A stretch of 64,000 nt of DNA from Cellvibrionales bacterium (GCA_014323765.1 JACONM010000036.1:97-64096), one strand, 5' to 3'. Positions 28,480 through 50,028 are shown, counted from the first letter of the stretch. Notes: generated by a model from the letters alone, not told the origin. Numbers and translations: made by a program.

Positions 28480-28481
28480 CG

Positions 28482-31732: not shown

Positions 31733-31775
31733 CATGGCAAATGGTGCGGGGCGGGACTGCGCTAGAATCCCGCTT

Positions 31776-32474
31776 ATGCCAACGCCCGCCGATGCCGCCT
31801 GTCCTGCGCTGGAATGCCGCGGGCTGCGGCGTGCCTATCAGCTTGGCCCGGAGCGGCTGGAGATTCTTAAGGGCGTGGATTTGACGGTGCGGGCCGGCGA
31901 GAGTATCGCGATTATGGGGGCTTCTGGGTCCGGTAAATCGACCCTGTTGCACCTGCTTGGGCTGCTGGATGTGGCGGACGCGGGGGAGATCTGTATTGCG
32001 GGGCGGACGTTGGAGGGGCTGAGTGAGGCGGCGCGGGCGACTCTGCGCAACCGGATGCTGGGGTTTGTCTTTCAATTTCACCATTTGCTGCCGGAATTCA
32101 GTGCTTTGGAAAATGTCAGCATGCCGCTTTGGTTGCGGGGGTTGGGCGGTCGGCAGGCACGGGTGCGGGCGGCGGCGGTGTTGGAACAGGTCGGCTTGGC
32201 GGAGCGGGCGGCGCATCGACCGGCGGAATTGTCCGGCGGTGAGCGGCAGCGGGTGGCGATTGCCCGCGCTTTGGCTGGGGAGCCGGCGTTGCTGCTGATG
32301 GACGAGCCGACTGGCAACCTGGACAAGGCCAATGCTTGGCGCATTTTGGAGCTGATCGAGCGGCTCAATCGGCAGGGTGGGGCGGCTTTGGTGTTGGTGA
32401 CTCACGATGCCGAGATTGCGGCGCGGATGGGGCGGCGGTTGGGTCTGCGCGATGGGCGCCTGCATCCGCTCTAA
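31776..32474 (+). CDS. lolD: Lipoprotein-releasing ABC transporter ATP-binding protein
   Basis: GASGSGKST, LSGGERQRVAIARAL, LLMDEPTGNLD. The start was chosen to give ~232 aa. Confidence 0.92.
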   Translation: MPTPADAACPALECRGLRRAYQLGPERLEILKGVDLTVRAGESIAIMGASGSGKSTLLHLLGLLDVADAGEICIAGRTLEGLSEAARATLRNRMLGFVFQFHHLLPEFSALENVSMPLWLRGLGGRQARVRAAAVLEQVGLAERAAHRPAELSGGERQRVAIARALAGEPALLLMDEPTGNLDKANAWRILELIERLNRQGGAALVLVTHDAEIAARMGRRLGLRDGRLHPL

Positions 32475-32524
32475 TGTCTTGATATTTTTGTGAATAATGG
32501 CGCGAATAGGGGTTTAGCGGCGCG

Positions 32525-33808
32525 ATGAATCTGGCGTTGGAATTCACTCTGGCGGTGCGTTATAGCCTGGGCCAGCAGCGTAGCCGGGGGGGTCGTTTTA
32601 TTACCATGCTGGCGGTGTTGGGGCTGGTGTTGGGCACGGCGTTGCTGATTGCGGTGTTTGCGGTGATGAACGGTTTTGAGCGGGAGATGCGCGAGCGTAT
32701 TTTGGCGTTGGTGCCGCATATTCGCCTTGAGGTTGCGGGGGCTGCGAGGGTCGGGCCGGGCGAGTTGGTGGCGGGGGACGGCGGCATTGGTGCCGAGTGG
32801 CGTGGGTGGATGCGGCAGATTAGTGCCCATCCGCAGGTTCGCTCAGTGAGCCCTTATCGCGAGCTTACGGTGCTGTATCGGCATCGTGGGCGGGTTGAGC
32901 CGGGGATATTGTTTGCGCTGGATTCTGAGCATGAAGCTGGGCAGCAAACCGCTTTTGCGCGGGCGGTTGGGGGGGAATTGCTGGCGCGTTTGCATCGGGC
33001 GCCGGGCGGTGGGGTGATCTTGGGGCGGGGGCTGGCGGAGCGGTTGGGGCTGGCGGTCGGCGAGCGGGTGCGGGTGTTGGTGTTTGGCGAAGGGCGGGGG
33101 GCGTTGCGGGGGGCGAGTTTTCCGATTTTGGGGCTGTTGCGCTCTGGCACCGAGCTGGACCAGAGTTTGGGGCTGGTTCATTTTGCCGGGTTGGCGGCGA
33201 TTCCACGGCAGGCGACTGGCCCGGCGGGGCTGCGGGTGCAGGTGGATGAGGTCTTCGCGGCGCGGGCGGTGGGGCGGGAATTGCGGGCGGGGTTGCCGGC
33301 GGGTTTTGCGCTGGAGACTTGGCAGCAGCGGTACGGCAATTTGTACGAGGCGATTGAGATGTCGCGCTCTTTGGTTAGCTTGATCGTGCTGTTGATCTTG
33401 GCCATCGCGGCGTTTAATTTGGTCGCTACCCTGATGATTGCGGCGGCGGACCGGCAGGGCGAGGTGGCGATGCTGAAAGCATTGGGGGCTGGGCCTGCGA
33501 GTCTGGCGCGGGTTTTTGCTCTGCAGGGGTTGTTGACTGGGCTGGCGGGTGGGGTGGCCGGCGGGGTTTTGGGGGTGATTTTGGCCCTCAATTTGCGCGA
33601 ACTGGCGGCGGCGGTGCAGGCGTGGGCTGGGGTGCAGCTGTTGGATTCTGCCGTCTATCCCATCGACTATTTGCCCGCCGATTTGCATTGGGGGCAGGCG
33701 GCGGCGATCGTGGGGGTTGCCGTGGTGTTGAGCGGGCTGGCGGCGCTTTATCCGGCGGGGCGGGTGGCGCGGTTGGCCCCGGCGCAGGTGTTGCGCTACG
33801 AATATTGA
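32525..33808 (+). CDS. lolE: Lipoprotein-releasing ABC transporter permease
   Basis: Paralogue of lolC, flanking lolD. Confidence 0.9.
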   Translation: MNLALEFTLAVRYSLGQQRSRGGRFITMLAVLGLVLGTALLIAVFAVMNGFEREMRERILALVPHIRLEVAGAARVGPGELVAGDGGIGAEWRGWMRQISAHPQVRSVSPYRELTVLYRHRGRVEPGILFALDSEHEAGQQTAFARAVGGELLARLHRAPGGGVILGRGLAERLGLAVGERVRVLVFGEGRGALRGASFPILGLLRSGTELDQSLGLVHFAGLAAIPRQATGPAGLRVQVDEVFAARAVGRELRAGLPAGFALETWQQRYGNLYEAIEMSRSLVSLIVLLILAIAAFNLVATLMIAAADRQGEVAMLKALGAGPASLARVFALQGLLTGLAGGVAGGVLGVILALNLRELAAAVQAWAGVQLLDSAVYPIDYLPADLHWGQAAAIVGVAVVLSGLAALYPAGRVARLAPAQVLRYEY

Positions 33809-33955
33809 GCGGCCGGTGTGCCGTTGCGCGTTTCCGTGTCCGTCTGCCCGCGGGGCCGGGATGGGTGAGCTGTGGCCCGTTGCGGTGTTCGGTGGGCGGG
33901 TTCAGGCAGCGGGGGTGGGTCGGGCAGCGATGGCGGCGGGCGGGAGAGGCGGGCG

Positions 33956-36292
33956 ATGAAGCAGAGCGCGATCTTGTTGGCTTTTGCGGTCGGCGTTTTT
34001 TGTCCCAATTTTTTCCCTGCGCTGCCGGATTTTGCCTATTTTCTTGGCGTTGGGATTCCGCTGGCGGTGGTGGCTGGCTGGCGGCGTTGGTTTTGGTTGC
34101 TGGGGTTGGTGGTGGGGTTGGGGGTTGGCCTGCACAGTGCGCAACAATTTGCCGATGGTCTGTGGCCGGAGCGGCTGAATGGCGCGGCGTATCGGATGGA
34201 AGGGCGGGTGGCCGGCGTGGTGCGACAGCGTGAGCGGAGTTGGCGGTTTGATTTTGTGCCGACGCGGATGGTTGCGCTGGATTCGACTGTGGCCGGGGCG
34301 GAACCGGGGTTGCCGCGGCGGGTGCGGTTGGCTTATTACGGGCACGATCGTGCGGATGGGTTGGCGGGGTTGCCGGTGGTGCAGCCGGGGCAGGAATTGG
34401 TATTGGTGGCTCGGTTGCGCCGTCCGCACGGGCTGATGAACCCGGGGCTGTTCGACTATCAGCGCTGGATGATTGGCAAGGGGTACGGTGCCGGCGGGTC
34501 GGTTCGAAAATTGGAGCGGGTGGGGAAGCTTGGCGGCGGGATTCAGGGGCGCATTGACCGCTGGCGAGCCGGGTTGGCGGAGCGGTTATACGGGGCCGAT
34601 GTGCCGCGGGCGTCCATGCAGGCGGCCCTGTTGGTGGGGGTGTTGGCGGGGCTGGATGAGCAGACCCGCGAGGTGTTTGTCGCCACCGGCACTGTGCATT
34701 TGTTGGTGATTTCCGGCTTGCATGTCGGCTTGATTGCGCTGCTTGGTTGGGTGGCCGGGCGTTGGTTGCTGTCGTTGGTCTCGCCAGTTAGCGGACTCAA
34801 TGCGGTGCGCTGGGCCAATTTTGCGGCCTTGGCATTGGCGGGGGCCTATGCGGCGGCGGGGGGGTTTTCCTTGCCGACCTTGCGTGCTCTGCTCATGCTG
34901 GCGGCGGTGTTGTTGCCGCGGCTGTTTTTTCTGCGGGTCTGGCCTTGGTGGAGTTTTTGTTTGGCGTTGGCGGCGGTGGCGCTGTTTGAGCCGCGGGCGG
35001 TGTTGACTCAGGGTTTCTGGCTTTCTTTTGGGGCGGTGGCGGTGATCTTTCTGGGGCTGACGGGTCGCGCCGTGCAAAATCATGGCTGGGTGGTGGCGCT
35101 GGTGCGCACGCAGATGCTGTTTTTGTTTGGCTTTGCCGCTATGTTGGCGTTGTTTCAGGGCAGTTTTAACCCGCTGAGTTTCGTGGCCAATTTGTTTGCC
35201 GTGCCGCTGACTACTTTGGTGGTTGTGCCGCTGGAATTTTTTGGGCTGCTGGTCTTTGCGGTGTATGAGCAGGCGGGTTTGGGAGTCTGGCGGTTGGTCG
35301 GCAGGCTGTTGGATTTTGAGGTGTGGGTGTTGGCCTGGTTGGCGCAGCAGCGGGCGTTGGAATTGGTTATGGCGGCGGTGCCGACTTGGGTCGCGCTGGT
35401 TTCGGTCACCGCTGGGTTTGTTTTGATCAGCCCCGTCCGGCTATGGATGCGGGCGGTCGCCGCGCTCTTGGTGTTGCCGCTGTTTATTAGCCCGGGGCGG
35501 GGCGATTATCTGTTGGAGGTGCGGGTGTTTGATGTCGGCCAGGGGCTGGCAGTGCTGGTGCGGCAGCCGGGCTACAGCATGCTGTACGACACCGGGCCGC
35601 GGTTTAGCGAGCAGTTTGATGCCGGGGCGGATATCCTCGCGCCTAGCCTGCGGCGGCTACGGGTGCGGGCTATCGATGACCTGATTATTAGCCACCCGGA
35701 CATTGACCATGCTGGTGGTTTTGCGGGGCTGCTTCGGCGGATTGAGGTGCGGCGGTTGTGGGCGGGGCGCATCGACTCCGCTTGGGCCGAGCACGGGCCG
35801 CGCCCCTGTCACGCTGGCGTTAGTTGGCGGCAAGGCGCGGTCCGCTATGCCTTTTTGCACCCGCGCATGGTGGACCCGGGCGAGCGGCGGCAGCCGGACA
35901 ACGAGAGATCCTGTGTGCTGAGCATCCGCTTTGGCGACCAGCATCTGCTGATCCCGGGCGACATCAGCCATACTGTGGAACGCGACTTGGTGGCGCAATT
36001 TGGGCGCGATCTGCGGGCTACGCTGGTCTTGGTGCCGCACCACGGCAGCCGTTTTTCATCGACCGCGCCTTTTGTGCGCGCCACTGCGCCGGAGTACGCC
36101 ATCGCCAGTGCTGGCTATTTCAATCAGTTCGGTCATCCGCACCCGCAAGTGGTGGCCCGCTACCGTAATCAGGGGGCGCAGTTTTACCGCACAGATCAAC
36201 ATGGCATGGTCCGCCTGCGCTGGGCGCAAGATGCCGAGCTAGAGGGAATTTTTACCGAAGATTCCCGCCGGGTTTTTTGGTGGCAGAGGTGA
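33956..36292 (+). CDS. comEC: DNA internalization-related competence protein ComEC/Rec2
   Basis: Polytopic competence domain plus a C-terminal metallo-beta-lactamase domain (ISHPDIDHAGG, VPHHGS). Confidence 0.92.
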   Translation: MKQSAILLAFAVGVFCPNFFPALPDFAYFLGVGIPLAVVAGWRRWFWLLGLVVGLGVGLHSAQQFADGLWPERLNGAAYRMEGRVAGVVRQRERSWRFDFVPTRMVALDSTVAGAEPGLPRRVRLAYYGHDRADGLAGLPVVQPGQELVLVARLRRPHGLMNPGLFDYQRWMIGKGYGAGGSVRKLERVGKLGGGIQGRIDRWRAGLAERLYGADVPRASMQAALLVGVLAGLDEQTREVFVATGTVHLLVISGLHVGLIALLGWVAGRWLLSLVSPVSGLNAVRWANFAALALAGAYAAAGGFSLPTLRALLMLAAVLLPRLFFLRVWPWWSFCLALAAVALFEPRAVLTQGFWLSFGAVAVIFLGLTGRAVQNHGWVVALVRTQMLFLFGFAAMLALFQGSFNPLSFVANLFAVPLTTLVVVPLEFFGLLVFAVYEQAGLGVWRLVGRLLDFEVWVLAWLAQQRALELVMAAVPTWVALVSVTAGFVLISPVRLWMRAVAALLVLPLFISPGRGDYLLEVRVFDVGQGLAVLVRQPGYSMLYDTGPRFSEQFDAGADILAPSLRRLRVRAIDDLIISHPDIDHAGGFAGLLRRIEVRRLWAGRIDSAWAEHGPRPCHAGVSWRQGAVRYAFLHPRMVDPGERRQPDNERSCVLSIRFGDQHLLIPGDISHTVERDLVAQFGRDLRATLVLVPHHGSRFSSTAPFVRATAPEYAIASAGYFNQFGHPHPQVVARYRNQGAQFYRTDQHGMVRLRWAQDAELEGIFTEDSRRVFWWQR

Positions 36293-36414
36293 GGGTGATG
36301 CATAGCCCGGTTGCTCCGTATTTTGTCTTGCGCTGTCCAGGGCTTGCCATGAAATTTGGTGCGCATTGCGGTACCCTCACAGGTTTCTAACTGGTATGAA
36401 GAGAGGCGCGAACC

Positions 36415-37155
36415 GTGTATGACCTAGTGGTGGCCGGGGGCTGGTTGATGCTGCCGATTTTGCTTTGTTCGCTGGTGTCGGTCGCCATTGTTATCGAGCG
36501 GTTTTGGTCGCTGAACCGCCGTAAAATCCTGCCCGCCGGGCTGCTCAAAAACGCTTGGGAGATGCACCAAGCCGGCCCGCTCAGCCCGGAACGCATTGCC
36601 GCGTTGCGCAATCAGAGCCCGCTCGGCGAGGTCTTTGCGGCGGGGCTTGTCAACCAAGCGCACGGGCGCGAGACCATGAAAGATGCCATGGAAGAAGCCG
36701 GCAGCAAGGTCGTCCACGACATGGAATGCTTCCTGCCAGCACTCGGCACCATCGCGGCGGTCGCACCCTTGCTGGGTTTGCTCGGCACCGTGCTCGGCAT
36801 GATCGAAGTATTTAGCGAGATCATGCTGAGCGGCACCGGCGACACCGCTCGCCTCGCGGGGGGCATTTCCACTGCGCTGATCACTACCGCCGCCGGATTA
36901 GTGGTGGCGATTCCCTCCATGATTTTTCACCGCTACTTTGAACGCCAAGTCGACGACCTAGCCGCCCATTTGCAACACCAAAGCTCGCGCCTGCTCGATG
37001 CCCTGTTCAGTGGCAAGGCATTGCATGAGAGCCTCGATGCGCCCGATGCAGAAGTCGAAGCAGAGACCGATTCTGCCCCCTCCGACATCAATGACACGGA
37101 GACCGACCCGGCGGCGGCACCAGTGCTGGCCACCCCCGCGGCGGACCGCCGGTGA
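36415..37155 (+). CDS. exbB: MotA/TolQ/ExbB proton-channel family protein
   Basis: Three TM helices, LGLLGTVLGMI and TALITTAAGL motifs. GTG start. Confidence 0.9.
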   Translation: MYDLVVAGGWLMLPILLCSLVSVAIVIERFWSLNRRKILPAGLLKNAWEMHQAGPLSPERIAALRNQSPLGEVFAAGLVNQAHGRETMKDAMEEAGSKVVHDMECFLPALGTIAAVAPLLGLLGTVLGMIEVFSEIMLSGTGDTARLAGGISTALITTAAGLVVAIPSMIFHRYFERQVDDLAAHLQHQSSRLLDALFSGKALHESLDAPDAEVEAETDSAPSDINDTETDPAAAPVLATPAADRR

Positions 37156-37574
37156 GGTTCCGCCAACGCCGCCGCGAGGCCCTGCCGGTCAATTTGACCC
37201 CACTGATCGATGTGGTCTTTCTGCTATTGATTTTCTTTATGGTATCGACCAGCTTCAGCCGCGAAAACCAATTACAGATAAACCTGCCGACCAGCAGCAC
37301 CGAAGCCGCCCCCGCCCCCGCACCGGGCCTGTCGCTGAGCATCCACCAAGACGGCAGCTACGCGCTCAACGGGCGGGTGCTGAGTAATGCCCGCCCGCAA
37401 ACCCTGCTCAAGGCGTTGCGGCAGGAAGCGGGCGGCGACCTAGAACAACCGCTGCTGATCATCGCCGACTCGGAAGCCCGCCATCAGGCGGTGGTCAGTG
37501 CCCTCGATGCCGCCGCGCAGCTGGGGTTGGGGCAGGTCCGCCTAGCGACCCAAACCCCGCCCGCACCCCCGTAG
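37152..37574 (+). CDS. exbD: ExbD/TolR biopolymer transport protein
   Basis: NLTPLIDVVFLLLIFFM anchor. 4-nt overlap with exbB. Confidence 0.9.
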   Translation: MRFRQRRREALPVNLTPLIDVVFLLLIFFMVSTSFSRENQLQINLPTSSTEAAPAPAPGLSLSIHQDGSYALNGRVLSNARPQTLLKALRQEAGGDLEQPLLIIADSEARHQAVVSALDAAAQLGLGQVRLATQTPPAPP

Positions 37575-37580
37575 CGGTCC

Positions 37581-38693
37581 ATGCGCTGGTCGCAATGCAT
37601 CGCCGCCGCTTGGTATGGCGACCGGACTTGGATCCGTGCCCTCTGGCCGCTAACACTCGCCTATCGAGGTGCCCTGCGCCAACATCGCCGCCGCGGGCAA
37701 GTGCAGGCCCAGGCGCAGATCAAGCGGCACGGTCGCCTAGCCGCGCCCGTGGTGGTGATCGGCAACATCACCGCCGGTGGCACCGGCAAAACACCGCTAC
37801 TGCTGCATCTGGCCGCCCGCTTGCGGTCCGCTGGCATTCGCGTGGGGGCCATAGCGCGTGGCTACGGCGGTCGCGCACGGCATTATCCGCATCGGGTTTG
37901 CGCAGCCGACTCCCCGCAAACAGTCGGCGACGAGCCGCTCTTAATCGCCCAATATGGTCTGCCGATAGTGATCGACCCCGATCGCTACGCGGCGGCGAAA
38001 CATCTGTTGTGCCAGACATCTGTGGACCTCATCCTCAGCGATGACGGCCTGCAACACCACGCCCTGCCCCGCGCTCTGGAAATCCTAGTGGTGGACGGCC
38101 AGCGTCAGTTCGGCAATGGCATGCTGCTACCGGCCGGCCCACTGCGCGAGCCACTGGCACGCCTGCATCAGGTGGATTTTTGCCTGCTGAACGGGGCTCC
38201 CGATAATGATGATTCTGGCGATAATTCTGGTGCTGGCGATGAAAACGATAACCCCCTACACCCAGAATTAGCCCGCGCCCTAGATGGCCACTTCCATCTA
38301 CAGCCGCGCCACTGGCTACAGCTGGCACCCAATACCCAGATCGCAATCGATGCCCTGCCCGCCGCCCGCACCGTGCATGCCATCGCCGCCATCGGCAACC
38401 CGCAGCGGTTTTTCGCCACCCTCGCCAGTCTAGGATTGCGCCCCCACCACTGCCACCCGCTCGCCGACCACGCCCCCATCTCGGCGGAACACCTGCGCCG
38501 CCTAGGGGCAAACGACCCGGCCACCCAAATCCTAATGACCACCAAAGATGCCGTAAAATGCCGCCAAACCATCGCCGCGCATGACTGGCGCAACTGCTGG
38601 GCACTGGAGGTCGGCGTGACCATGCAGGCAGAGCTAGAAAACCGCCTACTGGCCGCCATCAAGGCAACCTTGACCACCCGCCGCGGCACTTGA
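37581..38693 (+). CDS. lpxK: Tetraacyldisaccharide 4'-kinase
   Basis: GNITAGGTGKTP P-loop. Contains an acidic Asp/Asn/Gly-rich insertion (PDNDDSGDNSGAGDENDN). Confidence 0.92.
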   Translation: MRWSQCIAAAWYGDRTWIRALWPLTLAYRGALRQHRRRGQVQAQAQIKRHGRLAAPVVVIGNITAGGTGKTPLLLHLAARLRSAGIRVGAIARGYGGRARHYPHRVCAADSPQTVGDEPLLIAQYGLPIVIDPDRYAAAKHLLCQTSVDLILSDDGLQHHALPRALEILVVDGQRQFGNGMLLPAGPLREPLARLHQVDFCLLNGAPDNDDSGDNSGAGDENDNPLHPELARALDGHFHLQPRHWLQLAPNTQIAIDALPAARTVHAIAAIGNPQRFFATLASLGLRPHHCHPLADHAPISAEHLRRLGANDPATQILMTTKDAVKCRQTIAAHDWRNCWALEVGVTMQAELENRLLAAIKATLTTRRGT

Positions 38694-38740
38694 CCGCCCG
38701 CCTAGCCCACCACCACCGCCCCACCGCAAACCCAAAACCC

Positions 38741-39556
38741 ATGAACTTTCGCGTCATTATCCCCGCCCGCCGCGGCTCCACCCGCCTAGCGCACAAACCC
38801 CTCGCCGATATTGCCGGCCAGCCCATGATCTGGCGCACTGTCCAACGCGCCCGCCAATCGACCGCCACCGAAGTCCTAGTCGCCACCGACTGCCCCGAAA
38901 TCCACCGCGTGGTAACCGCAGCCGGCGGCGTAGCTCTGATGACCTCCAGCAAACACCGCTCCGGCACCGACCGCCTAGCCGAAGTAGCCGACCTCAAAAA
39001 CCTAGACGACCACGCCATTCTGGTGAATCTGCAAGGCGACGAGCCCCTAATGCCGCCGCCACTCATCGACCAAGTCGCCCAAGCCCTACACCGCAACCCA
39101 CACTGCGACTGCGCCACCCTCTGCACCCCAATCCGCACCAAGGGCACTTTCTTCGACCCCGCGGCGGTAAAAGTAACCCGCACCGAATCCGCCGAAGCCC
39201 TCTATTTCAGCCGCGCCCCCATCCCCTTCCCCCGCGACCAAATGCCACAGCTAACCACCCTAGCCGACGATGCCCCCCTGCCGCCGGGCCTAACCGCCTA
39301 CCGGCACATCGGCCTCTACGCCTACCGCGTGGCCCTGCTGCGCCGCTTCACCGCCTGGCCGCCAGCGACATCTGAACGCACCGAATCGCTAGAACAGCTA
39401 CGCATCCTAGCCCACGGCGGGCGCATCCATGTGGCGCAAGCCGCACTGCCAGCACCCGCCGGGGTGGACACGGCAGAAGACCTAGAACGCATCCGCCGCC
39501 TATTCACCAGCGGTCAAGCCGCCACCGCTCAGGCCGCCAACCCAGCAAATCAATAA
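38741..39556 (+). CDS. kdsB: 3-deoxy-manno-octulosonate cytidylyltransferase
   Basis: MNFRVIIPARRGSTRLAHKPL... and VNLQGDEP motif. Confidence 0.93.
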   Translation: MNFRVIIPARRGSTRLAHKPLADIAGQPMIWRTVQRARQSTATEVLVATDCPEIHRVVTAAGGVALMTSSKHRSGTDRLAEVADLKNLDDHAILVNLQGDEPLMPPPLIDQVAQALHRNPHCDCATLCTPIRTKGTFFDPAAVKVTRTESAEALYFSRAPIPFPRDQMPQLTTLADDAPLPPGLTAYRHIGLYAYRVALLRRFTAWPPATSERTESLEQLRILAHGGRIHVAQAALPAPAGVDTAEDLERIRRLFTSGQAATAQAANPANQ

Positions 39557-39572
39557 CTCAACAGATCGACCC

Positions 39573-40121
39573 ATGCCGCAAAATCAGCAAAACCAGCAAA
39601 TCCCCCACCGGCCGGACGCCCCACCAAAAACCGCCGTCCTATTCGTCTGCCTCGGCAACATCTGCCGCTCGCCCACCGCGCACGGGGTATTCACCCAACA
39701 GGTCGCCGCCGCGGGCCTAAGCCACGCCATCCGAACAGACTCCGCCGGCACTGGCGACTGGCACCTCGGCGAACCGCCAGACCGCCGCACCCAACACCAC
39801 GCCCAGCAGCGCAACATCGACCTATCCGCCCTGCGCGCCCGCCAAGTCCGCCCCGCCGACTTCCGCGAATTCGATTACATCCTCGCCATGGACCGCCAAA
39901 ACCTGCGCGACCTGCAAGCCATGCGCCCGCCCACCTACGCCGGCACCCTCGCCCTCTTTCTCGACTATCTAAACCCCGAAAACGCCGGCAAAAAACCAAA
40001 ACACCAGCGCGAAGTGCCCGACCCCTACTACGGCGGCGCAGACGGCTTCGAGCAAGTGCTAGACCTAGTCGAGCAGGCCGCCCGCAACCTACTCCGCGAA
40101 ATCGCCGCCCAACTACGCTGA
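39573..40121 (+). CDS. Low-molecular-weight protein-tyrosine phosphatase
   Basis: VLFVCLGNICRSP CX5R(S) motif and DPYY. Confidence 0.92.
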   Translation: MPQNQQNQQIPHRPDAPPKTAVLFVCLGNICRSPTAHGVFTQQVAAAGLSHAIRTDSAGTGDWHLGEPPDRRTQHHAQQRNIDLSALRARQVRPADFREFDYILAMDRQNLRDLQAMRPPTYAGTLALFLDYLNPENAGKKPKHQREVPDPYYGGADGFEQVLDLVEQAARNLLREIAAQLR

Positions 40122-40136
40122 CAGTGCCCGCCCACC

Positions 40137-41162
40137 ATGCCCCTCCACTACCAACCCAACCACCCCCTCCTAGCGCACAACAGCCTAGGCATACCGGCCC
40201 GCTGCCACACCTACGTCGAAGCGCACACCCCAACCCAGATACGCGCAGCATGCGCCCACGCCCACACCCAAAACCTGCCCATTTTCGTGCTCGGCGACGG
40301 CACCAACCTCGTCATCGCCGCCGACTACCCCGGCCTAGTACTCCGCCCCCGCATCGGCGGCATCGAGAGACTGGCAGAAACGGCAAACACCGTCGATCTT
40401 GCCATCGGAGCCGGCGAAAACTGGCATAAATTCGTGCGCTGGACTCTCGAACAGAATCTCCACGGGCTGGAAAACCTAGCCCTAATCCCCGGCAGCTGCG
40501 GCGCCGCCCCAGTGCAAAATATCGGCGCCTACGGGGTGGAACTCGCCCCACGAGTGCGCTGGGTGGAATATATCGAGATCGCTTCCGGCCAAACCACGCG
40601 CCGCCCCGCCGCCGACTGCCAATTCAGCTACCGCGACAGCCTCTTCAAAGGCGACCTAGCAGGCAAAGTCGCCATCACCCGCCTCGCCCTGCGCCTGCAA
40701 AAACGCTTCCAACCGCAAACCCACTACCCAGCCCTAGCCGAATTCCTAGCCGACCTACCCACGCCACCCTCCGCCCGCCAAGTTTTCCAAGCCGTCTGCA
40801 CGATCCGCCGCCGCAAACTCCCCGATCCGGCCACAACCCCCAACGCCGGCAGCTTCTTCCAAAACCCGCAGATCCTCCGCCCCCACTACGACCAACTACG
40901 CCAACACCACCCCGACCTCCCCGGCTTCCCGCAAACGGACGGCACGATAAAAATCCCCGCCGCCTGGCTCATCGACCAACTCGGCTGGAAAGGCCGCCAG
41001 CAAAACGGCATCGGCATCCACGCCCGCCACGCCCTCATCCTCACCAACCCCGGCCACCGCCGCGGCCCCCAAGTGCTGGAATTCGCCGCGCAGATCGCCG
41101 CCGCCGTCCGCACCGCCTACGGCATCGACCTAAAAATAGAACCCCACATCCTCACCGCCTAA
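40137..41162 (+). CDS. murB: UDP-N-acetylenolpyruvoylglucosamine reductase
   Basis: FAD-binding PCMH domain and NAGSFFQNP motif. 341 aa. Confidence 0.93.
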   Translation: MPLHYQPNHPLLAHNSLGIPARCHTYVEAHTPTQIRAACAHAHTQNLPIFVLGDGTNLVIAADYPGLVLRPRIGGIERLAETANTVDLAIGAGENWHKFVRWTLEQNLHGLENLALIPGSCGAAPVQNIGAYGVELAPRVRWVEYIEIASGQTTRRPAADCQFSYRDSLFKGDLAGKVAITRLALRLQKRFQPQTHYPALAEFLADLPTPPSARQVFQAVCTIRRRKLPDPATTPNAGSFFQNPQILRPHYDQLRQHHPDLPGFPQTDGTIKIPAAWLIDQLGWKGRQQNGIGIHARHALILTNPGHRRGPQVLEFAAQIAAAVRTAYGIDLKIEPHILTA

Positions 41163-41212
41163 ACCCCCCACCGCCGCCCCGCAAAAAAACCAGTTGAAAT
41201 GAAGATGAAAAG

Positions 41213-41225
41213 CATTATCATTCCC
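41213..41225. promoter_or_regulatory. Fur-box-like element upstream of bfd
   Basis: CATTATCATTCCC lies within GATGAAAAGCATTATCATT, ~45 nt upstream of the bfd ATG. The same 13-mer recurs upstream of bfr. Confidence 0.45.
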
Positions 41226-41267
41226 ACCTCTCCACCGCATGCCCGCATGCCACCGCCCCGCCCGCCC

Positions 41268-41462
41268 ATGATCGTCTGCATCTGCCACAACATCAACGCC
41301 GCCCAAATCGCCGAACTGGCCGAGCGGCACCCCTGCACCCTCGAAGAAGTCATCGACTGCACCGGCGCCGGCACCTGCTGCGGCAAGTGCCAATGGCGCA
41401 TCCAAGCCGCCTTACAAGAGCCGCCCCCCGCCGAGTTTTACGAAGCCACCGCCTGCGCCTAA
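41268..41462 (+). CDS. bfd: Bacterioferritin-associated ferredoxin
   Basis: 64 aa from MIVCICHNI... with the C-x-C...C-x-x-C [2Fe-2S] pattern (CICH...CCGKC). Confidence 0.88.
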   Translation: MIVCICHNINAAQIAELAERHPCTLEEVIDCTGAGTCCGKCQWRIQAALQEPPPAEFYEATACA

Positions 41463-41587
41463 TCTCCAATCGCCGCCGACATCCCCCCGCGCCACCCACC
41501 AAAAATCCACCCGCCCACCAAATCCGCCCCTCACCCCTTAACTTAAACGCCCCACCCCCCAACGCAAACAAAAGCCTTTCTCATTCC

Positions 41588-41606
41588 AATTATCATTATC
41601 ATTCCC
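41588..41606. promoter_or_regulatory. Fur box upstream of bfr
   Basis: AATTATCATTATCATTCCC. The reverse complement contains GATAATGATAAT, the first 12 nt of the GATAATGATAATCATTATC consensus. Confidence 0.55.
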
Positions 41607-41693
41607 TTTTAATATCAATAACTTAGGCTTGCACCGCGCCCCCAACAAGGGCATACTCCCCACCCGCAACCGCAACCACCGCCGGAGCCCACC

Positions 41694-42182
41694 ATGAAAG
41701 GGAACGCCAAAATCATCGAGCACCTCAACAAAGTGCTCGGCAACGAGCTCATCGCCATCAACCAGTACTTCCTCCATGCGCGCATGTACAAAGACTGGGG
41801 CATGCAAAACATCGCCGACTACGAATACCGCGAATCGATCGAGGAAATGCAGCACGCCGACCAGCTGATCGAACGCATCCTGTTCCTCGAAGGGCTACCC
41901 AACCTCCAAGACCTCGGCACCCTCCGCATCGGCGAAAACACCGAAGAAATGCTCCGCTGCGACCTCGCCCTAGAAATGGACGCCATCCCCGACCTCCGCA
42001 CCGGCATCGCCCACTGCGAACAACAGCAAGACTTCGTCAGCCGCGACCTGCTACAGCAGATCCTAGAGGCAGAAGAAGAACACGTCGACTGGCTAGAAAC
42101 CCAACTCGGCCTAATCACCAAAATGGGCCTAGAAAACTACACCCAAGCCCAGATTGTCAAAAAAGCAGAAAAGGCCGACTAA
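41694..42182 (+). CDS. bfr: Bacterioferritin
   Basis: [31 protein letters not shown]... is a full-length Bfr pattern with ferroxidase ligands. Confidence 0.95.
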
Positions 42183-42243
42183 GCCCCCCTAACAAGAGGG
42201 AGAGATCGAAGCCCCCCTGACAAGGGGGGTTTGGGGGGTTGGA
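42181..42243. repeat. REP-like double hairpin element, copy A
   Basis: GCCCCCC-taacaa-GAGGG is followed by GCCCCCC-tgacaa-GGGGGG-tttGGGGGG. Positions 42208-42243 are identical to 45049-45084. Confidence 0.8.
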
Positions 42244-42361
42244 AGTGGGGGGAGTCGGAAGTGGAGAAAGGGGAGCTCGAAGGTTTTCTGATTGGAGTCC
42301 CCCAAAACCTCTATGATAGCCCCAACTCTCAACCCCACCCCAACCCGGAGAACCCAAAAAA

Positions 42362-43549
42362 ATGCGCCACCCACTACCCCTAACCCTAGCCCTACTCCTA
42401 ACCGCCACCCTAACCCAAGCCGACATATCGACCGTAGTCCCCCCAGACCTACCGACCTCCGCCGGCCCAGTCCAAATAGAACCAGCAGTCCGCGACCTAA
42501 AAACCCCCTGGGCCCTAACCTTCCTCCCCGACGGCACCTTCCTAGTCACCGAACGCGGCGGCACCCTCTGGCACTTCGACGGGCGCCTCGACAGCTCGTC
42601 AGTCGATGCCCCAAATGACCTTCTTCAAATCCCGCCACGCCGGTCCCCCGTCGCCGGCATCCCCACAGTAGCCGCCCACGGCCAAGGCGGACTTCTGGAC
42701 ATCCAAGCGGCACAAGACTTCGCCACCACCCGCGACCTCTTCTTCACCTTCGCCAAACCACAAGAAAACGGCGGCGCCGGCACCGCCCTAGCCCGCGCCA
42801 AACTCTCCGCCGACAACACCCAACTAACCGACCTGCGCATACTTTTCGAAATGGCCCCCGGCTCCAGCGGCGGCCGCCACTTCGGCTCCCGCGTACTAGA
42901 AGCCCCCGACGGCTCCCTCTACCTCACCCTCGGCGACCGCGCCGACCGCCCCAGTGCCCAAGACCTCAGCAACCACAACGGCGCAATAATCCGCCTAACT
43001 CGCGACGGCGGCCTGCACCCCGACGCCCCCTTCCGCACCACCCCCGGCGCCCGCCCAGAAATCTGGTCCTACGGCCACCGCAACCCACAAGGTGCCGCCC
43101 TCGACCGCCACGGACGACTCTGGATATCCGAACACGGCGCCCGCGGCGGCGATGAGATCAACCTCATTAAACGCGGCGCCAACTACGGCTGGCCCATCAT
43201 CAGCTACGGCCGCCACTATTCCGGCCGCAAAATCGGCGAAGGCACCGCCAAACCGGGGATGGAACAACCCAACCACTATTGGGACCCCTCCATCGCCCCC
43301 TCCGGCATGCTCATCTACCAAGGCAAAATGTTCCCCGAATGGCAGGGCGACATCTTCATCGGCTCCCTAAAATTCGGCCAGATCGAGCGGCTAGAAGTGA
43401 ACGGCACCCAAGTCACCCCAGCCGAAATCATCAAATCAGCAGTCACCGCCCGCATCCGCGACCTACGCGAAGCCCCAGACGGTGCCATCTGGTTCCTATC
43501 CGAAAGCCGCGGCGCCATCTACCGACTGTCCCGCCCTCCTCCCCCTTAA
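42362..43549 (+). CDS. PQQ-dependent soluble sugar (aldose) dehydrogenase, YliI-like
   Basis: Signal peptide, a beta-propeller pattern, and GHRNPQG and ANYGWP motifs. Confidence 0.88.
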   Translation: MRHPLPLTLALLLTATLTQADISTVVPPDLPTSAGPVQIEPAVRDLKTPWALTFLPDGTFLVTERGGTLWHFDGRLDSSSVDAPNDLLQIPPRRSPVAGIPTVAAHGQGGLLDIQAAQDFATTRDLFFTFAKPQENGGAGTALARAKLSADNTQLTDLRILFEMAPGSSGGRHFGSRVLEAPDGSLYLTLGDRADRPSAQDLSNHNGAIIRLTRDGGLHPDAPFRTTPGARPEIWSYGHRNPQGAALDRHGRLWISEHGARGGDEINLIKRGANYGWPIISYGRHYSGRKIGEGTAKPGMEQPNHYWDPSIAPSGMLIYQGKMFPEWQGDIFIGSLKFGQIERLEVNGTQVTPAEIIKSAVTARIRDLREAPDGAIWFLSESRGAIYRLSRPPPP

Positions 43550-43638
43550 AAAAACTCAAAAATCCGCTTGACCCCCCCCCCCGACGGCGTATTGTCCCCC
43601 CACTGCTCGCCCATCGAGCCATCACAGAGGACACAATC

Positions 43639-45021
43639 ATGTCTAAATCAATCCTACACTGGCTACCCGCCACTCTCTGCCTAACCCTCAGCCTAGCCCT
43701 CACCCCGGTCGCCCTAGCAAAGCGCGCGGACGGCGGCCCCATGGAAGGCACTGATACTGCCGACACCCTCAATGGCACCACAAACAACGATCTCATAAAC
43801 GGTCGTGGCGGTGACGACACCATTAGCGGCGGCAAGGGCCAAGACCGCCTCCGCGGCAATCGGGGCAACGACACCCTGCGCGGTGATAGGGCCAAAGATA
43901 AACTCCGCGGCGGGCCGGGCGACGACATGTTGTACGGTGGTGCTCAAAACGATTTCCTCTGGGGCGGTGCCGGCGACGACACCCTGCGCGGCGGCACGCA
44001 CAACGATGCCTTGTACGGTGGCACCGGCGACGACCGCCTAGTCGGCGGCCCCGGCCACGACCGCCTGTTCGGCGATGAAGACGACGACATCCTTAAGGGC
44101 TGGCGAGGCAACGACCGCCTAATGGGTGGCTCCGGCGACGACCGCCTGAAGGGCGGCAAGGGCGACGACATTCTCAACGGCGGCGAAGACAAAGACACCT
44201 TAGTCGGTGACGAGGGCAATGACCAATTTCACCTGCTCGACCCAGAAGCGAATGCCGCCGATGCCGACCGCGTCAACGACTTTAGACCTGCCGACGATGT
44301 CCTAGTCCTCCCCGATGGTGTCACCGAAGTCAGCTACTTCCAAACCCGCCCCGCAAGGAAAAGAACCCGCAGCACCATCCTCCAAAGTGCCGATGGCAGC
44401 CAGACCTACGCCGCCCTCCGCGGCCACCACGACCTAGCCAACACCGCCACCGTCCGTGCGGAAGCGATCCAAGACTCATCTGAGAACAACATCACCACCC
44501 GAACCCTCCGCCAACCCACGCTCACCCTAACCCGCGTCGAAGGCAGCGGCAATGAATCTCGCACCGTCACCGCCGACGACGACGGCAACAACAACGCCGC
44601 CACAGTGGACGAAGCCGCCGCCGGTTCCAACCAAACCAACCTATTCCTCACCAGCAGCACCCGCCCGGCCACGCCAGCCATCTTCCGCGCCTTCTTCAGC
44701 GGCGAAGGCGTAACCTTCGTCGCCGGCACCCCCACCGACGACAACTGGGGCGGTGCCGCCATCAATCCCGACGATTTGTCAGCAACCGCCCTAACCGTAG
44801 ACAAAGACAACGCCTACGTCGACTTCACAATTCCCTCTGACAGCGACTGCAACCCCTGCCAACTGCTACGCATCATTGCCCCGACCGAAACCGGCGTACA
44901 CCAAGATGCCGACGACGATGATGAAGCCATCAGAATCGCAATCCGCCCCCGCAACGACGCCGCCCGCAACTATGACCGAAACCCGAATCGCTACACCATC
45001 ACCTTCGACGACGACGAATAA
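43639..45021 (+). CDS. Secreted calcium-binding RTX-repeat protein
   Basis: Sec-type signal peptide MSKSILHWLPATLCLTLSLALTPVALA, then about 14 GGxGxDxL nonapeptide repeats. The ORF-finder N-terminal extension to 43279 was rejected. Confidence 0.85.
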   Translation: MSKSILHWLPATLCLTLSLALTPVALAKRADGGPMEGTDTADTLNGTTNNDLINGRGGDDTISGGKGQDRLRGNRGNDTLRGDRAKDKLRGGPGDDMLYGGAQNDFLWGGAGDDTLRGGTHNDALYGGTGDDRLVGGPGHDRLFGDEDDDILKGWRGNDRLMGGSGDDRLKGGKGDDILNGGEDKDTLVGDEGNDQFHLLDPEANAADADRVNDFRPADDVLVLPDGVTEVSYFQTRPARKRTRSTILQSADGSQTYAALRGHHDLANTATVRAEAIQDSSENNITTRTLRQPTLTLTRVEGSGNESRTVTADDDGNNNAATVDEAAAGSNQTNLFLTSSTRPATPAIFRAFFSGEGVTFVAGTPTDDNWGGAAINPDDLSATALTVDKDNAYVDFTIPSDSDCNPCQLLRIIAPTETGVHQDADDDDEAIRIAIRPRNDAARNYDRNPNRYTITFDDDE

Positions 45022-45023
45022 AA

Positions 45024-45084
45024 AAGCCCCCCCCGACAAGGGGGTTCTGAAGCCCCCCTGACAAGGGGGGTTTGGGGGGTTGGA
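45024..45084. repeat. REP-like double hairpin element, copy B
   Basis: GCCCCCCC-cgacaa-GGGGG is followed by GCCCCCC-tgacaa-GGGGGG-tttGGGGGG. Shares a 36-bp identity with copy A. Confidence 0.8.
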
Positions 45085-45177
45085 TATGGAAAAGAGGCTT
45101 GAGGGCTCCCAGCACAGCGAAGGTTTGCCCGCAACACAAAAGCCTACGGGCGTTTTTTTGCGGGGCGTTTGTGGTGG

Positions 45178-45600
45178 CTATTTGACCACCCGTAGGGTTG
45201 GGCGGCGGGGTTTTGTGGGCTTGGTTGCGCTGCCCGGGGCGGGTTTGGAATCGACGGGTTTGGGGGGCGGCGGGGTTGGGTCGGGCTGGTTTTCTTCTCC
45301 GGCGAACATCATGCCGCGGCCGTTTTCTTTGGCGTAGATGCCGAGCACCGCCTCCAGCGGCACGCTAATATCTGTGGGGATGCCGCGAAAGCGGGCACTG
45401 AAGCACAGCCAATCGTTGCCCAGTGACAGGTCGGCGACCGCATCGGGCGCAATGTTCAGGATGATTTGCCCGTCCGTGACGTAATCTTGAGGCACACGCA
45501 CTTCCGGGTGCAGGGCGTTGACCAAAATGTGCGGGGTGGCGCGGTTGTCGAGAATCCACTCGTGGACGGCGCGCAACAGATAGGGGCGGCTTGGAGTCAT
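45178..45600 (-). CDS. sspB: ClpXP adaptor stringent starvation protein B
   Basis: MTPSRPYLLRAVHEWILDN... and a C-terminal ...RPTLRVVK ClpX-binding tail. Confidence 0.93.
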   Translation of the reverse strand: MTPSRPYLLRAVHEWILDNRATPHILVNALHPEVRVPQDYVTDGQIILNIAPDAVADLSLGNDWLCFSARFRGIPTDISVPLEAVLGIYAKENGRGMMFAGEENQPDPTPPPPKPVDSKPAPGSATKPTKPRRPTLRVVK

Positions 45601-45650
45601 GGGGTTCACTTGCGCGGCTGCCAACAATCCGGCTTAAGGCGCAACCCGCC

Positions 45651-46274
45651 CTAACCCGCCGCCATCTCTTGCTCGCAGAGCGACAGGCTGCGCTGGAAGG
45701 ACTCGCGCTGGACCAGCCTTTTCATGTAGGCGATCAGCACCTTGCCCTGGCGGGTTTTGGGCAGCTTCAGCCCCATCCGCTTATGGCGCCAGAGGATGGC
45801 GGCTAGACAGCAGTCGACTAGAGTCAACTCGGTGCTCAGAAAATAGTCCTGCTCGGCAAAAACCTGCGCGAGGCTGAGCAGGTTTTCGGTCATCGCCTTG
45901 GCATCGTCGCCGCTGTCCTGCCCCTGCATCAGACGATCGATCAACGGCCCCCAATCGCGCTCGATGCGCTGCATCCACAGTCGCGCTTGGGCGCGCACCA
46001 CCGGGTAGACCGGCAACAGCGGCGGGTGGGGGAAGCGCTCATCGAGGTATTCCATCACCACCCGCGAGTCGTACAGCACCAGATCCTGGTCGAGCAACGT
46101 GGGCAGCGAGCCATTAGGGTTGACCTCGGCCAGCTCGGCGGGCACCGTTTGCGGTGTGTATTCTTCCACCGTGCAGGTAACGCCCTTTTCCGCCAGCACT
46201 ATGCGCACCCAGTGCGAATAATGGCAGCAGGGGTCGGAGAACAGCGTAAGTTGGGCGCGGTTCAGCGGTTTCAT
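45651..46274 (-). CDS. sspA: Stringent starvation protein A (GST-like)
   Basis: 207 aa GST fold, directly upstream of sspB. Confidence 0.93.
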   Translation of the reverse strand: MKPLNRAQLTLFSDPCCHYSHWVRIVLAEKGVTCTVEEYTPQTVPAELAEVNPNGSLPTLLDQDLVLYDSRVVMEYLDERFPHPPLLPVYPVVRAQARLWMQRIERDWGPLIDRLMQGQDSGDDAKAMTENLLSLAQVFAEQDYFLSTELTLVDCCLAAILWRHKRMGLKLPKTRQGKVLIAYMKRLVQRESFQRSLSLCEQEMAAG

Positions 46275-46325
46275 GGCAACCGATTCAAGGTAGAGGGCGG
46301 GGGCGGAGTAGCGTAGCGGCGGGAA

Positions 46326-48365
46326 TCAGTGAATATCGCGCCAGTACTCGCGGTTGAGCAGCCATGCGAATACAAAAAAGATACCCAGAAAAATCAGCAC
46401 CCCGGTGCCAATCTGCACCCGCTGTTCGGCGTAAGGCTCGCCCATGTAGACCAGAAAATTGGTCAGATCGTAGGCGGCTTGGTCGAACTCGGCCGGCGAC
46501 AATGCGCCCGCATCGGCGGGCAGGATTTGCAATTCGCAATGGTCGCCCTGGTCGCCATGCCCCGCCCCCGCCACACTGGAGACATCGGACGCACAGGTCG
46601 GCAGCCCTTGCAGGTCGAGCAGCGCATGCGGCATGCCGACATCTTTGAAGACCAGATTATTGACCCCAAGCGGGCGCGCATCATCGGCGTAAAAACTGCG
46701 CAAATAGGTATAGACCCATTCGGGTTTGCGAGCGCGGGCGACCAGCGTCAGGTCCGGCGGCGCGACCCCGAAAGCGGCTTTGGCACTGTCTTCCGGGTAG
46801 GCGATGGTCATCAGATCGCCGATTTTTTGCTCGGTGAACACCAGGTTTTCCAGCGCGATCTGGTGCGGAATGCCAAGGTCATCCGCCACCCGCTCGAAAC
46901 GGGCGTACTTGGTGGAATGGCAGCCGTAGCAATAATTCATATACCACTTGGCTCCGCGCTGTAGCGATGCCTTGTCGCCGATGTCCGCCTTGAATTTTGC
47001 ACAGGGAATCTGCCCGCAATCGTATTTGCCCTCGGCTCCGACCACCTGAATCGGAATAAAGGTCAGCAGTAAGACCACCGCCAGCCCTTTGCAGAAAGGC
47101 CAAAGTCCCAAGCCGCCCGCCGTGGTGACGCGCTGCGGTGGGGTTTTGTATTTATCGAGTTTCGACCAGAAGGGCATCCCCAAAAAGAACACAAAATAAA
47201 ACAGGGTGGCGATTTGCGCCAGCAGGGTGCGCGCCGGGGTCGGTGCCTTGACCCCCAAAATCCCCAAAATAATAAAAGAGGCGGCGAACAGCAGGATCAT
47301 GGTGTGCCAAATATTGCCTTTGTAGCGAATAGAGCGCACCGGGCTTTTATCCAGCCAGGGCAGTACAAACAGGATGGCGATGGCCGCCGCCATGACGATA
47401 AAGCCGCCGAGCTTGGAACTGATGGGGCCGACATCAAAGGTCACCGCCCGCAACATGGAATAAAAAGGCGTGAAATACCAGACCGGGGCGATGTGTTCTG
47501 GCGTTTTTAGCGGGTTGGCTTCCTCAAAATTGGCGTATTCCAGAAAATAGCCGCCCATCTCAGGGGCGAAAAACATGATGGCGCAAAACACAAACAGGAA
47601 CACGATGATGGGCAGCAGATCGTGAACCGGCAGGTAATAGGGGAAGAAGGGCACCCCATCGAGCGGCACCCCGCGCTCGTCCTTAGTGGCTTTGATTTCC
47701 ACCCCATCGGGGTTGTTGGAGCCGACCTCGTGCAACGCCAGAATGTGTAACACCACCAGGGCCAGCAGAATGATCGGCAGGGCGACCACATGCAGCGACA
47801 TAAAGCGGTTCAGGGTGATACCGGAAATCAAATAATCGCCGCGAATCCATTCGACAATCCCCTCGCCCCAGAACGGAATAGCCCCGAACAGCGAGATGAT
47901 CACCTGCGCACCCCAGTAGGACATTTGCCCCCAAGGCAACACATAGCCCAAAAACGCCTCGGCCATGAGCACCACATAGATGGTCATGCCGAAGATCCAT
48001 ACTAGCTCCCGCGGCGCACGGTAGGAGCCGTAAATCAGCCCGCGGAACATGTGCATGTAGACCACAAAAAAGAACGCCGAGGCACCGGTGGAGTGCATGT
48101 AGCGGATCAGCCAGCCCATCTCCACATCGCGCATGATGTATTCGACCGAGGCAAAGGCGCGCTCGGCGGAAGCCTCGTAGCTCATCAGCAGCCAGATGCC
48201 AGTGCCCAGCTGAATCACCAGCACCAGCAGCGAGAGCACCCCGAAGAAATACCAGAAGTTGAAGTTTTTCGGCGCATAGTACTCCGCCATGTGGTACTTC
48301 CACTGGTGCTTTAGGCCCGGCATGCGGGCATCGAACCAGCCCCAGAGGGATTTGAGCGCATTCAT
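46326..48365 (-). CDS. Fused cytochrome b / cytochrome c1 of the bc1 complex
   Basis: One uninterrupted 679-aa ORF. The N-terminal ~410 aa are cytochrome b. A signal-anchor-like segment follows, then c1 with the CYGCHS haem site and a C-terminal TM anchor. Confidence 0.9.
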   Translation of the reverse strand: MNALKSLWGWFDARMPGLKHQWKYHMAEYYAPKNFNFWYFFGVLSLLVLVIQLGTGIWLLMSYEASAERAFASVEYIMRDVEMGWLIRYMHSTGASAFFFVVYMHMFRGLIYGSYRAPRELVWIFGMTIYVVLMAEAFLGYVLPWGQMSYWGAQVIISLFGAIPFWGEGIVEWIRGDYLISGITLNRFMSLHVVALPIILLALVVLHILALHEVGSNNPDGVEIKATKDERGVPLDGVPFFPYYLPVHDLLPIIVFLFVFCAIMFFAPEMGGYFLEYANFEEANPLKTPEHIAPVWYFTPFYSMLRAVTFDVGPISSKLGGFIVMAAAIAILFVLPWLDKSPVRSIRYKGNIWHTMILLFAASFIILGILGVKAPTPARTLLAQIATLFYFVFFLGMPFWSKLDKYKTPPQRVTTAGGLGLWPFCKGLAVVLLLTFIPIQVVGAEGKYDCGQIPCAKFKADIGDKASLQRGAKWYMNYCYGCHSTKYARFERVADDLGIPHQIALENLVFTEQKIGDLMTIAYPEDSAKAAFGVAPPDLTLVARARKPEWVYTYLRSFYADDARPLGVNNLVFKDVGMPHALLDLQGLPTCASDVSSVAGAGHGDQGDHCELQILPADAGALSPAEFDQAAYDLTNFLVYMGEPYAEQRVQIGTGVLIFLGIFFVFAWLLNREYWRDIH

Positions 48366-49855: not shown

Positions 49856-50028
49856 GTTGCGCCTCCGGGGGTAGGCTGGGTTAGCTGCTCAATAGAATCG
49901 GCGGATTTCAGCTTCGACAGACCTTGCATTGATGAAACGCTCGATGAGGGGTTGCTCGGTATCCTAAAAGTCTGCCGAGTGCGGGATGGAGTCGACTTGG
50001 TTTGGTCGCCACGCGGCCCGCTGGGGAC

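Follow-up and report, generated by a model that had tools for sequence, protein, structure and literature searches.

A colinear gene tract carrying the codon dialect of the opposite strand in a strongly strand-biased Cellvibrionales genome

The 64,000-nt stretch of Cellvibrionales DNA analysed here (GCA_014323765.1, JACONM010000036.1:97-64096; "the window") displays a very strong strand bias, and this bias is mirror-reversed in one tract of about 6.9 kb. This "core" (positions 38,237-45,021, plus strand) is composed of the 3' part of lpxK, kdsB, a low-molecular-weight tyrosine phosphatase gene (ptp), murB, bfd, bfr, a glucose/sorbosone dehydrogenase (GSDH) gene and an RTX-repeat protein gene. 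It is written in the native codon dialect of the opposite strand, which is "wrong" for the strand that it occupies. The best-supported reading, tentative and somewhat short of an even chance in our estimation, is that homologous recombination brought in the core as an allelic replacement, the donor being an unsampled sister lineage in which the locus is replicated in the opposite direction.

The window sequence originates from metagenomes of the sponge Lamellodysidea herbacea (PRJNA320446). The host is an uncultured sponge symbiont with a reduced genome, and its GC content, taxonomy and sample make it probably a member of the lineage represented by the Cellvibrionales metagenome-assembled genome (MAG) GM7GCV1. 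This MAG is 1.9 Mb long with 61% GC, and type IV pili have been reported in the paper describing it, which is silent on skew (PMC7313196). Throughout much of the window, third codon positions are ~80% G+T on one DNA strand, and the genes therefore use two codon "dialects" set by the strand they occupy. One strand gains C-to-T and A-to-G changes very strongly. An excess of G over C coupled to an excess of T over A is the usual signature of single-strand deamination. The bias is read as replication-driven because it shows this coupling and is independent of gene orientation.

In 1-kb windows, the plus strand has a GC skew between +0.22 and +0.37 at 22-36 kb and between -0.23 and -0.38 at 38-45 kb; the skew is close to 0 at 45-50 kb and ranges from +0.11 to +0.41 at 50-64 kb, and the sign of the AT skew is opposite all along. 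An earlier note on this DNA had illustrated the change of sign with seven hand counts of 60-nt lines, all of which are exact on recount. The left flank (the "PLUS" block, 22,270-35,767) comprises the genes of a Na/Pi cotransporter, trhO, a porin, ahpC-like, moxR, DUF58-like, tgpA, lolC, lolD and lolE, and the first 633 codons of comEC. As that note held, its plus strand is G/T-rich whatever the gene orientation: at 22.5-35.6 kb, the third-position GC skew (GC3 skew) per gene is +0.43 to +0.77 on the plus strand for genes of both orientations. At four-fold degenerate sites, the keto (G+T) fraction is 0.80-0.82, with G.66-.68, C.15-.19, T.14 and A.02-.04 on the plus strand.

The core is the quantitative mirror image of this composition ("MINUS" DNA), with G.12, C.69, T.04 and A.15 at four-fold sites and a plus-strand GC3 skew of -0.52 to -0.78 from kdsB through the RTX gene. 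Its relative synonymous codon usage correlates with that of the window's own minus-strand genes lying in PLUS DNA (r=0.98 and 0.96), and not with that of the plus-strand genes of the left flank (r=-0.13). The mirror extends to the proteins. On an index opposing G/V/W/F/C/L to P/T/H/Q/N/K residues, and relative to outgroup orthologues, proteins of the left flank score +0.13 to +0.22 and those of the core -0.17 to -0.33, the latter having moved towards P/T/H/Q/N/K. In the core, T/(C+T) is 0.03-0.08 and A/(A+G) 0.51-0.65. Both equal the mirrored PLUS values and reveal no relaxation, as befits either a recent event or a tract at steady state. Ten plus-strand genes, from exbB to the RTX gene, had been described as strongly C/A-rich. 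The gene list holds; exbB, exbD and the first 60% of lpxK are, however, unskewed.

Several ordinary sources of such a reversal are set aside. Transcription-driven asymmetry does not account for it, as flank genes on both strands carry the same plus-strand bias, and a terminator at 45.03 kb stops read-through in the leftward direction. Selection, be it on codon usage or on the level of expression, the latter named by the earlier note as what might underlie such patches, is likewise rejected as the cause of the reversal: boundaries fall within genes, and four-fold sites give the same map. A horizontally acquired genomic island is equally discarded. The GC content of the core (0.60-0.66) is like that of the flanks, its dialect is the native minus-strand one, no tRNA, integrase or transposase gene was found in the window, and six of its eight genes are syntenic core genes, only the GSDH and RTX-repeat genes being missing from the outgroups.

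The left boundary of the core consists of two sharp steps separated by an unskewed plateau. Maximum-likelihood change points in third-position keto content place the first step at 35,770 (2-lnL support interval, in log-likelihood units, 35,758-35,776), at about codon 633 of comEC, and the second at 38,252 (support 38,234-38,441), at about codon 220 of lpxK; across them, the keto fraction passes from 0.80 to 0.48 and then to 0.19. The likelihood of this two-step model is 63 lnL better than that of a single change point and 7.4 lnL better than that of a linear ramp. The gradient over the 3' third of comEC and the 5' end of exbB that had been perceived by eye thus gives way to a 2.5-kb plateau with sharp edges. 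Both genes that contain a step are intact. ComEC (33,872-36,292, plus strand) matches TIGR00361 to the end of the profile and passes from PLUS to unskewed DNA, and the essential lipid A kinase LpxK (37,581-38,693, plus strand; TIGR00682, 1.3e-67, residues 46-352) passes from unskewed to MINUS DNA at ~38,237-38,252.

The plateau (35,770-38,234, plus strand) harbors the 3' end of comEC, exbB, exbD and the first ~220 codons of lpxK. Its four-fold composition (G.38, C.45, T.09, A.08), with T/(C+T)=0.17 and A/(A+G)=0.18, is that of a 50:50 mix of PLUS and MINUS DNA, and no autocorrelation was detected within it. A foreign origin of the plateau is not supported: its ExbB shares its nearest relatives with MurB of the core, and its relative outgroup divergence is the same as that of the other parts.

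The right boundary lies between 45,021 and 45,193, at a tandem hairpin element (45,025-45,089, plus strand) located between the convergent RTX-repeat and sspB genes; it is sharp and coincides with what had been called a repetitive extragenic palindrome (REP)-like element at 45.02-45.08 kb, in accordance with the first description. A terminator-like site is found there on the minus strand (45,044-45,027). A second copy of the element follows bfr directly (42,181-42,248, plus strand). The two copies are in direct orientation, with the core GAAGCCCCCCTGACAAGGGGGGTTTGGGGGGTTGGA, and share 36 nt identically (at 42,208 after bfr, and 45,049-45,084 in the boundary copy). They bracket the GSDH and RTX-repeat genes, both missing from four outgroup loci, which suggests that these two genes form a cassette inserted at the bfr terminator. 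As bfr is followed by uvrC-pgsA in the outgroups, the right boundary is also a synteny break. The hairpin 21-mer recurs by chance in metagenome contigs, at 33 loci, all from unrelated organisms with ordinary skew. An AT-rich sequence upstream of bfr (41,588-41,630), AATTATCATTATCATT..., is presumably akin to a Fur box.

Beyond the hairpins, a short PLUS patch covers the 3' end of sspB (45,193-45,343, minus strand), where the keto fraction reaches 0.82 over 55 third positions and 0.91 over 32 four-fold sites. It is followed by a second unskewed tract (45,346-49,772, minus strand; G.44, C.41, T.07, A.09 at four-fold sites, with T/(C+T)=0.15 and A/(A+G)=0.17) that contains the 5' part of sspB, sspA, a fused petB-petC, petA and a hypothetical gene. 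The fusion is a single open reading frame (ORF) of 679 residues (46,326-48,365, minus strand) that joins a cytochrome b domain to a cytochrome c1 domain; the gene of the Rieske subunit lies upstream of it. From 49,778 to 64,000, nearly all genes are on the minus strand, namely rpsI, rplM, zapE, hisD, hisG and those of an MFS transporter, three glycosidases and an esterase, with degS on the plus strand. The keto fraction of this DNA is 0.77 at first, then 0.64 at 51.9-55.3 kb and 0.83 from 55.3 kb onwards. The proposal that 45.1-64 kb is as G/T-rich as the left flank stands, therefore, only from 55.3 kb, the second unskewed tract and the intermediate DNA at 51.9-55.3 kb departing from it.

With the usual polarity, in which the leading strand is G/T-rich, about two thirds of the strongly skewed genes are located on the C/A-rich, lagging-type strand, including rho, rpsI-rplM, hisGD and the glycosidase cluster (922-2,232, 50,029-50,859, 53,840-63,975 and others). 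It is unusual for ribosomal protein genes to lie on a lagging-type strand. A reversed polarity with a C/A-rich leading strand was considered on account of this distribution; it is not adopted because the coupling of G over C with T over A is the standard deamination signature mentioned above.

Gene order excludes the simplest rearrangement. The block tgpA-lolCDE-(DUF2062)-comEC-exbB-exbD-lpxK-kdsB-ptp-murB-bfd-bfr has the same order and orientation in four distant relatives (loci L008, L009, L051 and L052; 47-79% amino-acid identity), L008 being devoid of comEC-exbBD. This confirms the co-directional arrangement put forward in the earlier note, as well as the argument drawn from it that a simple inversion is no explanation. 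A recent simple inversion is rejected since the genes are neither reversed nor on the opposite strand relative to the ancestral order; furthermore, both left steps are inside genes, the right boundary being the sole intergenic one, and a search for inverted repeats found none on either side of the tract and no long ones in the whole window. Successive inversions, also proposed earlier, are disfavoured, as their breakpoints would fall in lpxK and comEC and the tract ends lack inverted repeats. In the two relatives that were profiled, the skew of the block is uniform and ordinary (+0.05 to +0.15). The ratio of identity to outgroups over identity between outgroups (amino acids) is 0.77-0.99, alike for the PLUS, unskewed and MINUS parts. 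A database search returned the same nearest relatives for MurB (core) and ExbB (plateau), at 52% and 76% identity, respectively, and MurB peptides find only relatives at 37-40% among species-representative genomes. We see just two possible sources of steps inside intact, colinear genes, namely homologous replacement by alleles of another composition or a change of replication direction without local rearrangement.

The same organization is found in independent assemblies. Five of them (ENA, JGI and Logan) are colinear with the window over all boundaries, with 99.0-99.8% identity. The ENA contigs come from two samples and two assemblers, and the assemblies overall from at least three samples. 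Contigs L003, L005 and L048-L050 span both left steps, and L003, L004 and L006 span the second step and the right boundary. Other contigs break near the left steps, L004 and L006 starting at 35,565 and L050/L007 (Logan) breaking near 38.75 kb, likely owing to strain-variable tracts at these positions. Other assemblies lengthen the contig by no more than about 1.3 kb, at its right end, and the rho protein, as delimited here, has no database record.

These assemblies also document recombination within the population. Their differences from the window are clustered in tracts of 40-460 bp with 5-7% divergence, set in a nearly identical background, which is the usual signature of homologous recombination. 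Divergent tracts within the core stay C/A-rich. In the strain represented by L004 and L006, one tract straddles the 35,770 step, and the direction of its differences flips there, with keto-to-amino changes of 14:3 on one side against 3:10 on the other (Fisher p=0.002); this first left step is polymorphic among strains. Three competence-related genes, comM (3,914-5,422), comF (19,823-20,557) and comEC, are present in the window.

The core is embedded in a mosaic that covers the whole window. A three-state hidden Markov model (HMM), run once on all third positions and once on four-fold sites alone, returns in both cases strongly G/T-rich stretches, with a keto fraction of ~0.8, that alternate with tracts devoid of skew (G=C, T=A; keto ~0.5). 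At least 8-12 such tracts, 0.4-10 kb long, occupy ~35% of the window; examples, besides the two flanking the core, are 4,433-5,021, 8,351-18,505, 34,465-34,846 and 51,040-51,421. Tract ends are found inside comM, comEC and zapE, and inside hisD in the third-position run only. The core is the one substantial mirror tract, a 14-codon mirror call at 20,471-20,510 occurring in the third-position run only. Every unskewed tract has a composition that can be described as a linear mix of the two extremes. The two that flank the core are exactly symmetric (T/(C+T)=0.15-0.17, A/(A+G)=0.17-0.18), whereas the remaining ones are shifted to the G/T-rich state (0.20-0.25 and 0.07-0.14, respectively) and look older and partly re-equilibrated. 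Half-relaxed mirror DNA is disfavoured as the source of the two core-flanking tracts: unlike in the older unskewed tracts, their transition-driven ratios are not ahead of the purine fraction.

A colinear tract, breakpoints within genes and a recombining population are what a mosaic replacement would lead one to expect. The exactly mirrored yet native composition of the core also speaks for it, as does the absence from the window of a dif-like site, a DnaA-box cluster, tRNA genes and long inverted repeats. The many small unskewed tracts call for replacement in any case, and the mirror tract is therefore most economically another such tract. We infer the following course of events from composition and gene order. 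The donor would belong to a sister lineage where, owing to a large inversion, the replication fork had long crossed the locus the other way. DNA from this lineage would have been taken up, and the resident alleles replaced via homologous recombination. The left crossover may have occurred in or beside the unskewed stretch at 35.77-38.24 kb: being its own mirror image, such DNA would stay similar between the two lineages and could serve as a homology anchor. The right end would be at the hairpin element that follows the RTX-repeat gene, where the sequence shared by the two lineages stops and gene order changes. The import is dated as probably recent because the tract shows no drift towards the flanking composition. 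The other unskewed tracts may derive from the same kind of exchange, some being older and partly re-equilibrated.

Allelic replacement from a relative that carries the locus on the opposite replication strand was among the possible causes listed by the earlier note; it is the best supported of them but is not proven, and no donor has been sampled. Several points weigh against it. Alleles in the mirror state are estimated to differ at ~20-30% of nucleotides, and at most third positions, which would be a severe barrier to RecA-dependent exchange. The right boundary coincides with a synteny break, which is natural for a rearrangement junction, and donor homology must end there. Among 5.8 billion proteins, no G/T-rich kdsB-RTX allele and no C/A-rich lolCDE allele was found. 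Finally, the origin of the unskewed tracts is not explained by it.

Since the right boundary is a synteny break, an explanation combining a terminus with an adjacent inversion stays alive as the main rival, although we consider it unlikely. On this view, the switch at 35.8-38.2 kb is the replication terminus zone, without any rearrangement; the plateau is the zone where forks meet or an unrelated unskewed tract, and the core is ordinary DNA of the other replichore at equilibrium. What is anomalous is then the sequence beyond 45.05 kb (at least 19 kb), which would have undergone a recent inversion that had one of its ends at the hairpins. Both the colinearity on the left and the sharp right boundary at the break relative to the four outgroups are accounted for, as is the lack of any relaxation in the core. 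The polarity of the left switch, from G-rich to C-rich on the plus strand, is that of a terminus, and genome reduction could have shifted the fork-meeting point into the block. After the inversion, rpsI-rplM and other minus-strand genes would be co-oriented with replication. The C-rich state ends at 45.05 kb, however, with a return to G-rich or neutral DNA that fits a terminus only with the extra inversion, and a terminus within the window and an inversion endpoint only 7-9 kb away make up a coincidence. No sequence within 9 mismatches of six proteobacterial dif sequences occurs in the 64 kb (one chance match has 10), and the ATAA-N6-TTAT core is absent from the window. The relatives (two profiled out of four) show a weakly positive skew that is uniform over the block. 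Far to the right, the DNA is skewed as strongly as the left flank, so that the inversion would have to be very recent, and the right-hand genes, rpsI-rplM included, would have been head-on for long before it.

A flip followed by an exact flip-back is considerably less probable. The segment from exbB to the RTX gene would have been inverted long ago, would have equilibrated on the other strand and would lately have turned back at the same two intergenic spacers, the left junction now being blurred by an unskewed recombination tract unrelated to it. The complete equilibration of the tract, down to protein composition, and the intergenic right boundary at the hairpins agree with this, and unskewed DNA is frequent enough for one such tract to cover a junction by chance. 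On the other hand, one and the same pair of short spacers would have to be used by two independent inversions, the ends lack inverted repeats, no copy of the hairpin element exists near 36.3 kb, and the steps at 35,770 and 38,250 lie within comEC and lpxK rather than in the 122-nt comEC-exbB spacer.

More doubtful still is a stable local reversal of the fork, with no past rearrangement or import. Leftward forks would start from a DnaA-box-less initiation zone at 45-50 kb and stop at two arrest sites, at 38.2 and 35.8 kb, delineating a "mini-replichore" of 7-14 kb at equilibrium. This readily yields the succession of states 1, 0.5, 0, 0.5 and 1, as two alternative stop and two alternative start sites, and the core and both flanking unskewed tracts are indeed devoid of relaxation. 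The polarity at 45.05 kb (C-rich to G-rich) is right for an origin. However, an oriC at this position is rejected, as a DnaA-box cluster and an AT-rich unwinding element are both missing from 45-50 kb: the window holds no perfect DnaA box and six boxes with one mismatch (6.4 expected by chance), none of them at 45-50 kb. Furthermore, the strongly G/T-rich 150-nt patch at the 3' end of sspB is off the profile, and the 0.4-kb unskewed tracts elsewhere cannot be replication zones. We know of no bacterial chromosome described with such a stable local fork reversal. The last alternative, an assembly or binning chimera joining two co-occurring strains, which the earlier note had listed, can be dismissed as hardly credible: the contigs of one sample start near the first step and the Logan assembly breaks near 38.75 kb, but at least five independent contigs, from different assemblers and at least three samples, reproduce the junctions, and no second MurB variant was found in the database.

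Three features of the window lie outside this argument. Two low-GC insertions, one with an N6/N4 DNA methylase gene and an uncharacterised ORF (20,889-22,567; GC 0.45, GC3 0.33-0.49) and the other with an AAA_21/Abi-like ATPase gene (11,589-12,704; GC3 0.55), are probably restriction-modification or defence genes acquired from outside. In addition, amtB (7,161-8,387) is located between two P-II genes (6,757-7,098 and 8,345-8,824) that are 74% identical in DNA.

A bias of this strength acts as a built-in tracer, each tract recording which strand it lived on, so that exchange between close relatives and past changes of replication direction become readable from a single sequence. If allelic replacement is correct, there is gene flow between lineages of different chromosome arrangement; the bias between replication strands is by itself enough to make homologous alleles 20-30% different and raises a purely mutational barrier to recombination, and unskewed tracts are possible bridges across that barrier. 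If the switch on the left is instead a terminus, replication of a reduced genome ends within an essential lipid A and cell-wall gene cluster. Under either of these two explanations, the lineage is a useful natural system for measuring the pace at which skew is gained and lost. A stable fork reversal would imply an almost unidirectional replication of the symbiont chromosome.

The tract can be viewed as a variant of familiar phenomena, namely the orientation record kept by skew and the mosaic allele, in an organism whose strand bias is exceptionally strong. GC skew, the indices of which have been reviewed (PMC3269016, PMC2804667), has been used as a record of past gene orientation (Merrikh & Merrikh 2018, PMC6220195), a use that has been criticised (Liu & Zhang 2022, PMC9098844). 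As in skew-reversed inversion segments, a local reversal of sign here records a long stay in the other orientation relative to the fork. In contrast with such segments, gene order is kept relative to four outgroups, the left boundaries are in comEC and lpxK, and no repeats flank the tract. The pneumococcal pbp2x and pbp2b and the Neisseria penA are mosaic genes made by transformation and homologous recombination. As a replacement, the present tract would share with them colinearity, within-gene breakpoints, strongly differing blocks, a competent background and clustered recombination tracts. It differs in that the block is the strand-mirror of the resident composition and not the product of species-level divergence, that it encompasses eight genes, that its donor is unsampled and that no selective agent is evident.

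The skew switch at a terminus with its dif site is likewise a passage from G-rich to C-rich DNA without rearrangement, and the transition at a terminus may be graded or stepped; here, in contrast, no dif-like sequence is present in 64 kb and the DNA is G-rich again after 7-9 kb. The amelioration of horizontally acquired DNA is a concept reportedly due to Lawrence and Ochman. Similarly to that case, an out-of-equilibrium composition can date an arrival, and the older unskewed tracts of the window are shifted to the local state. Unlike in amelioration, GC content and codon dialect are native, and only the strand is wrong. In isopod mitochondrial genomes, strand asymmetry has been reversed after inversion of the control region (PMC6601869). 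There as here, a mirror-image mutational pressure reshapes both synonymous sites and protein composition, on the scale of a whole small genome in isopods and of a 6.9-kb tract of a bacterial chromosome in the present case.

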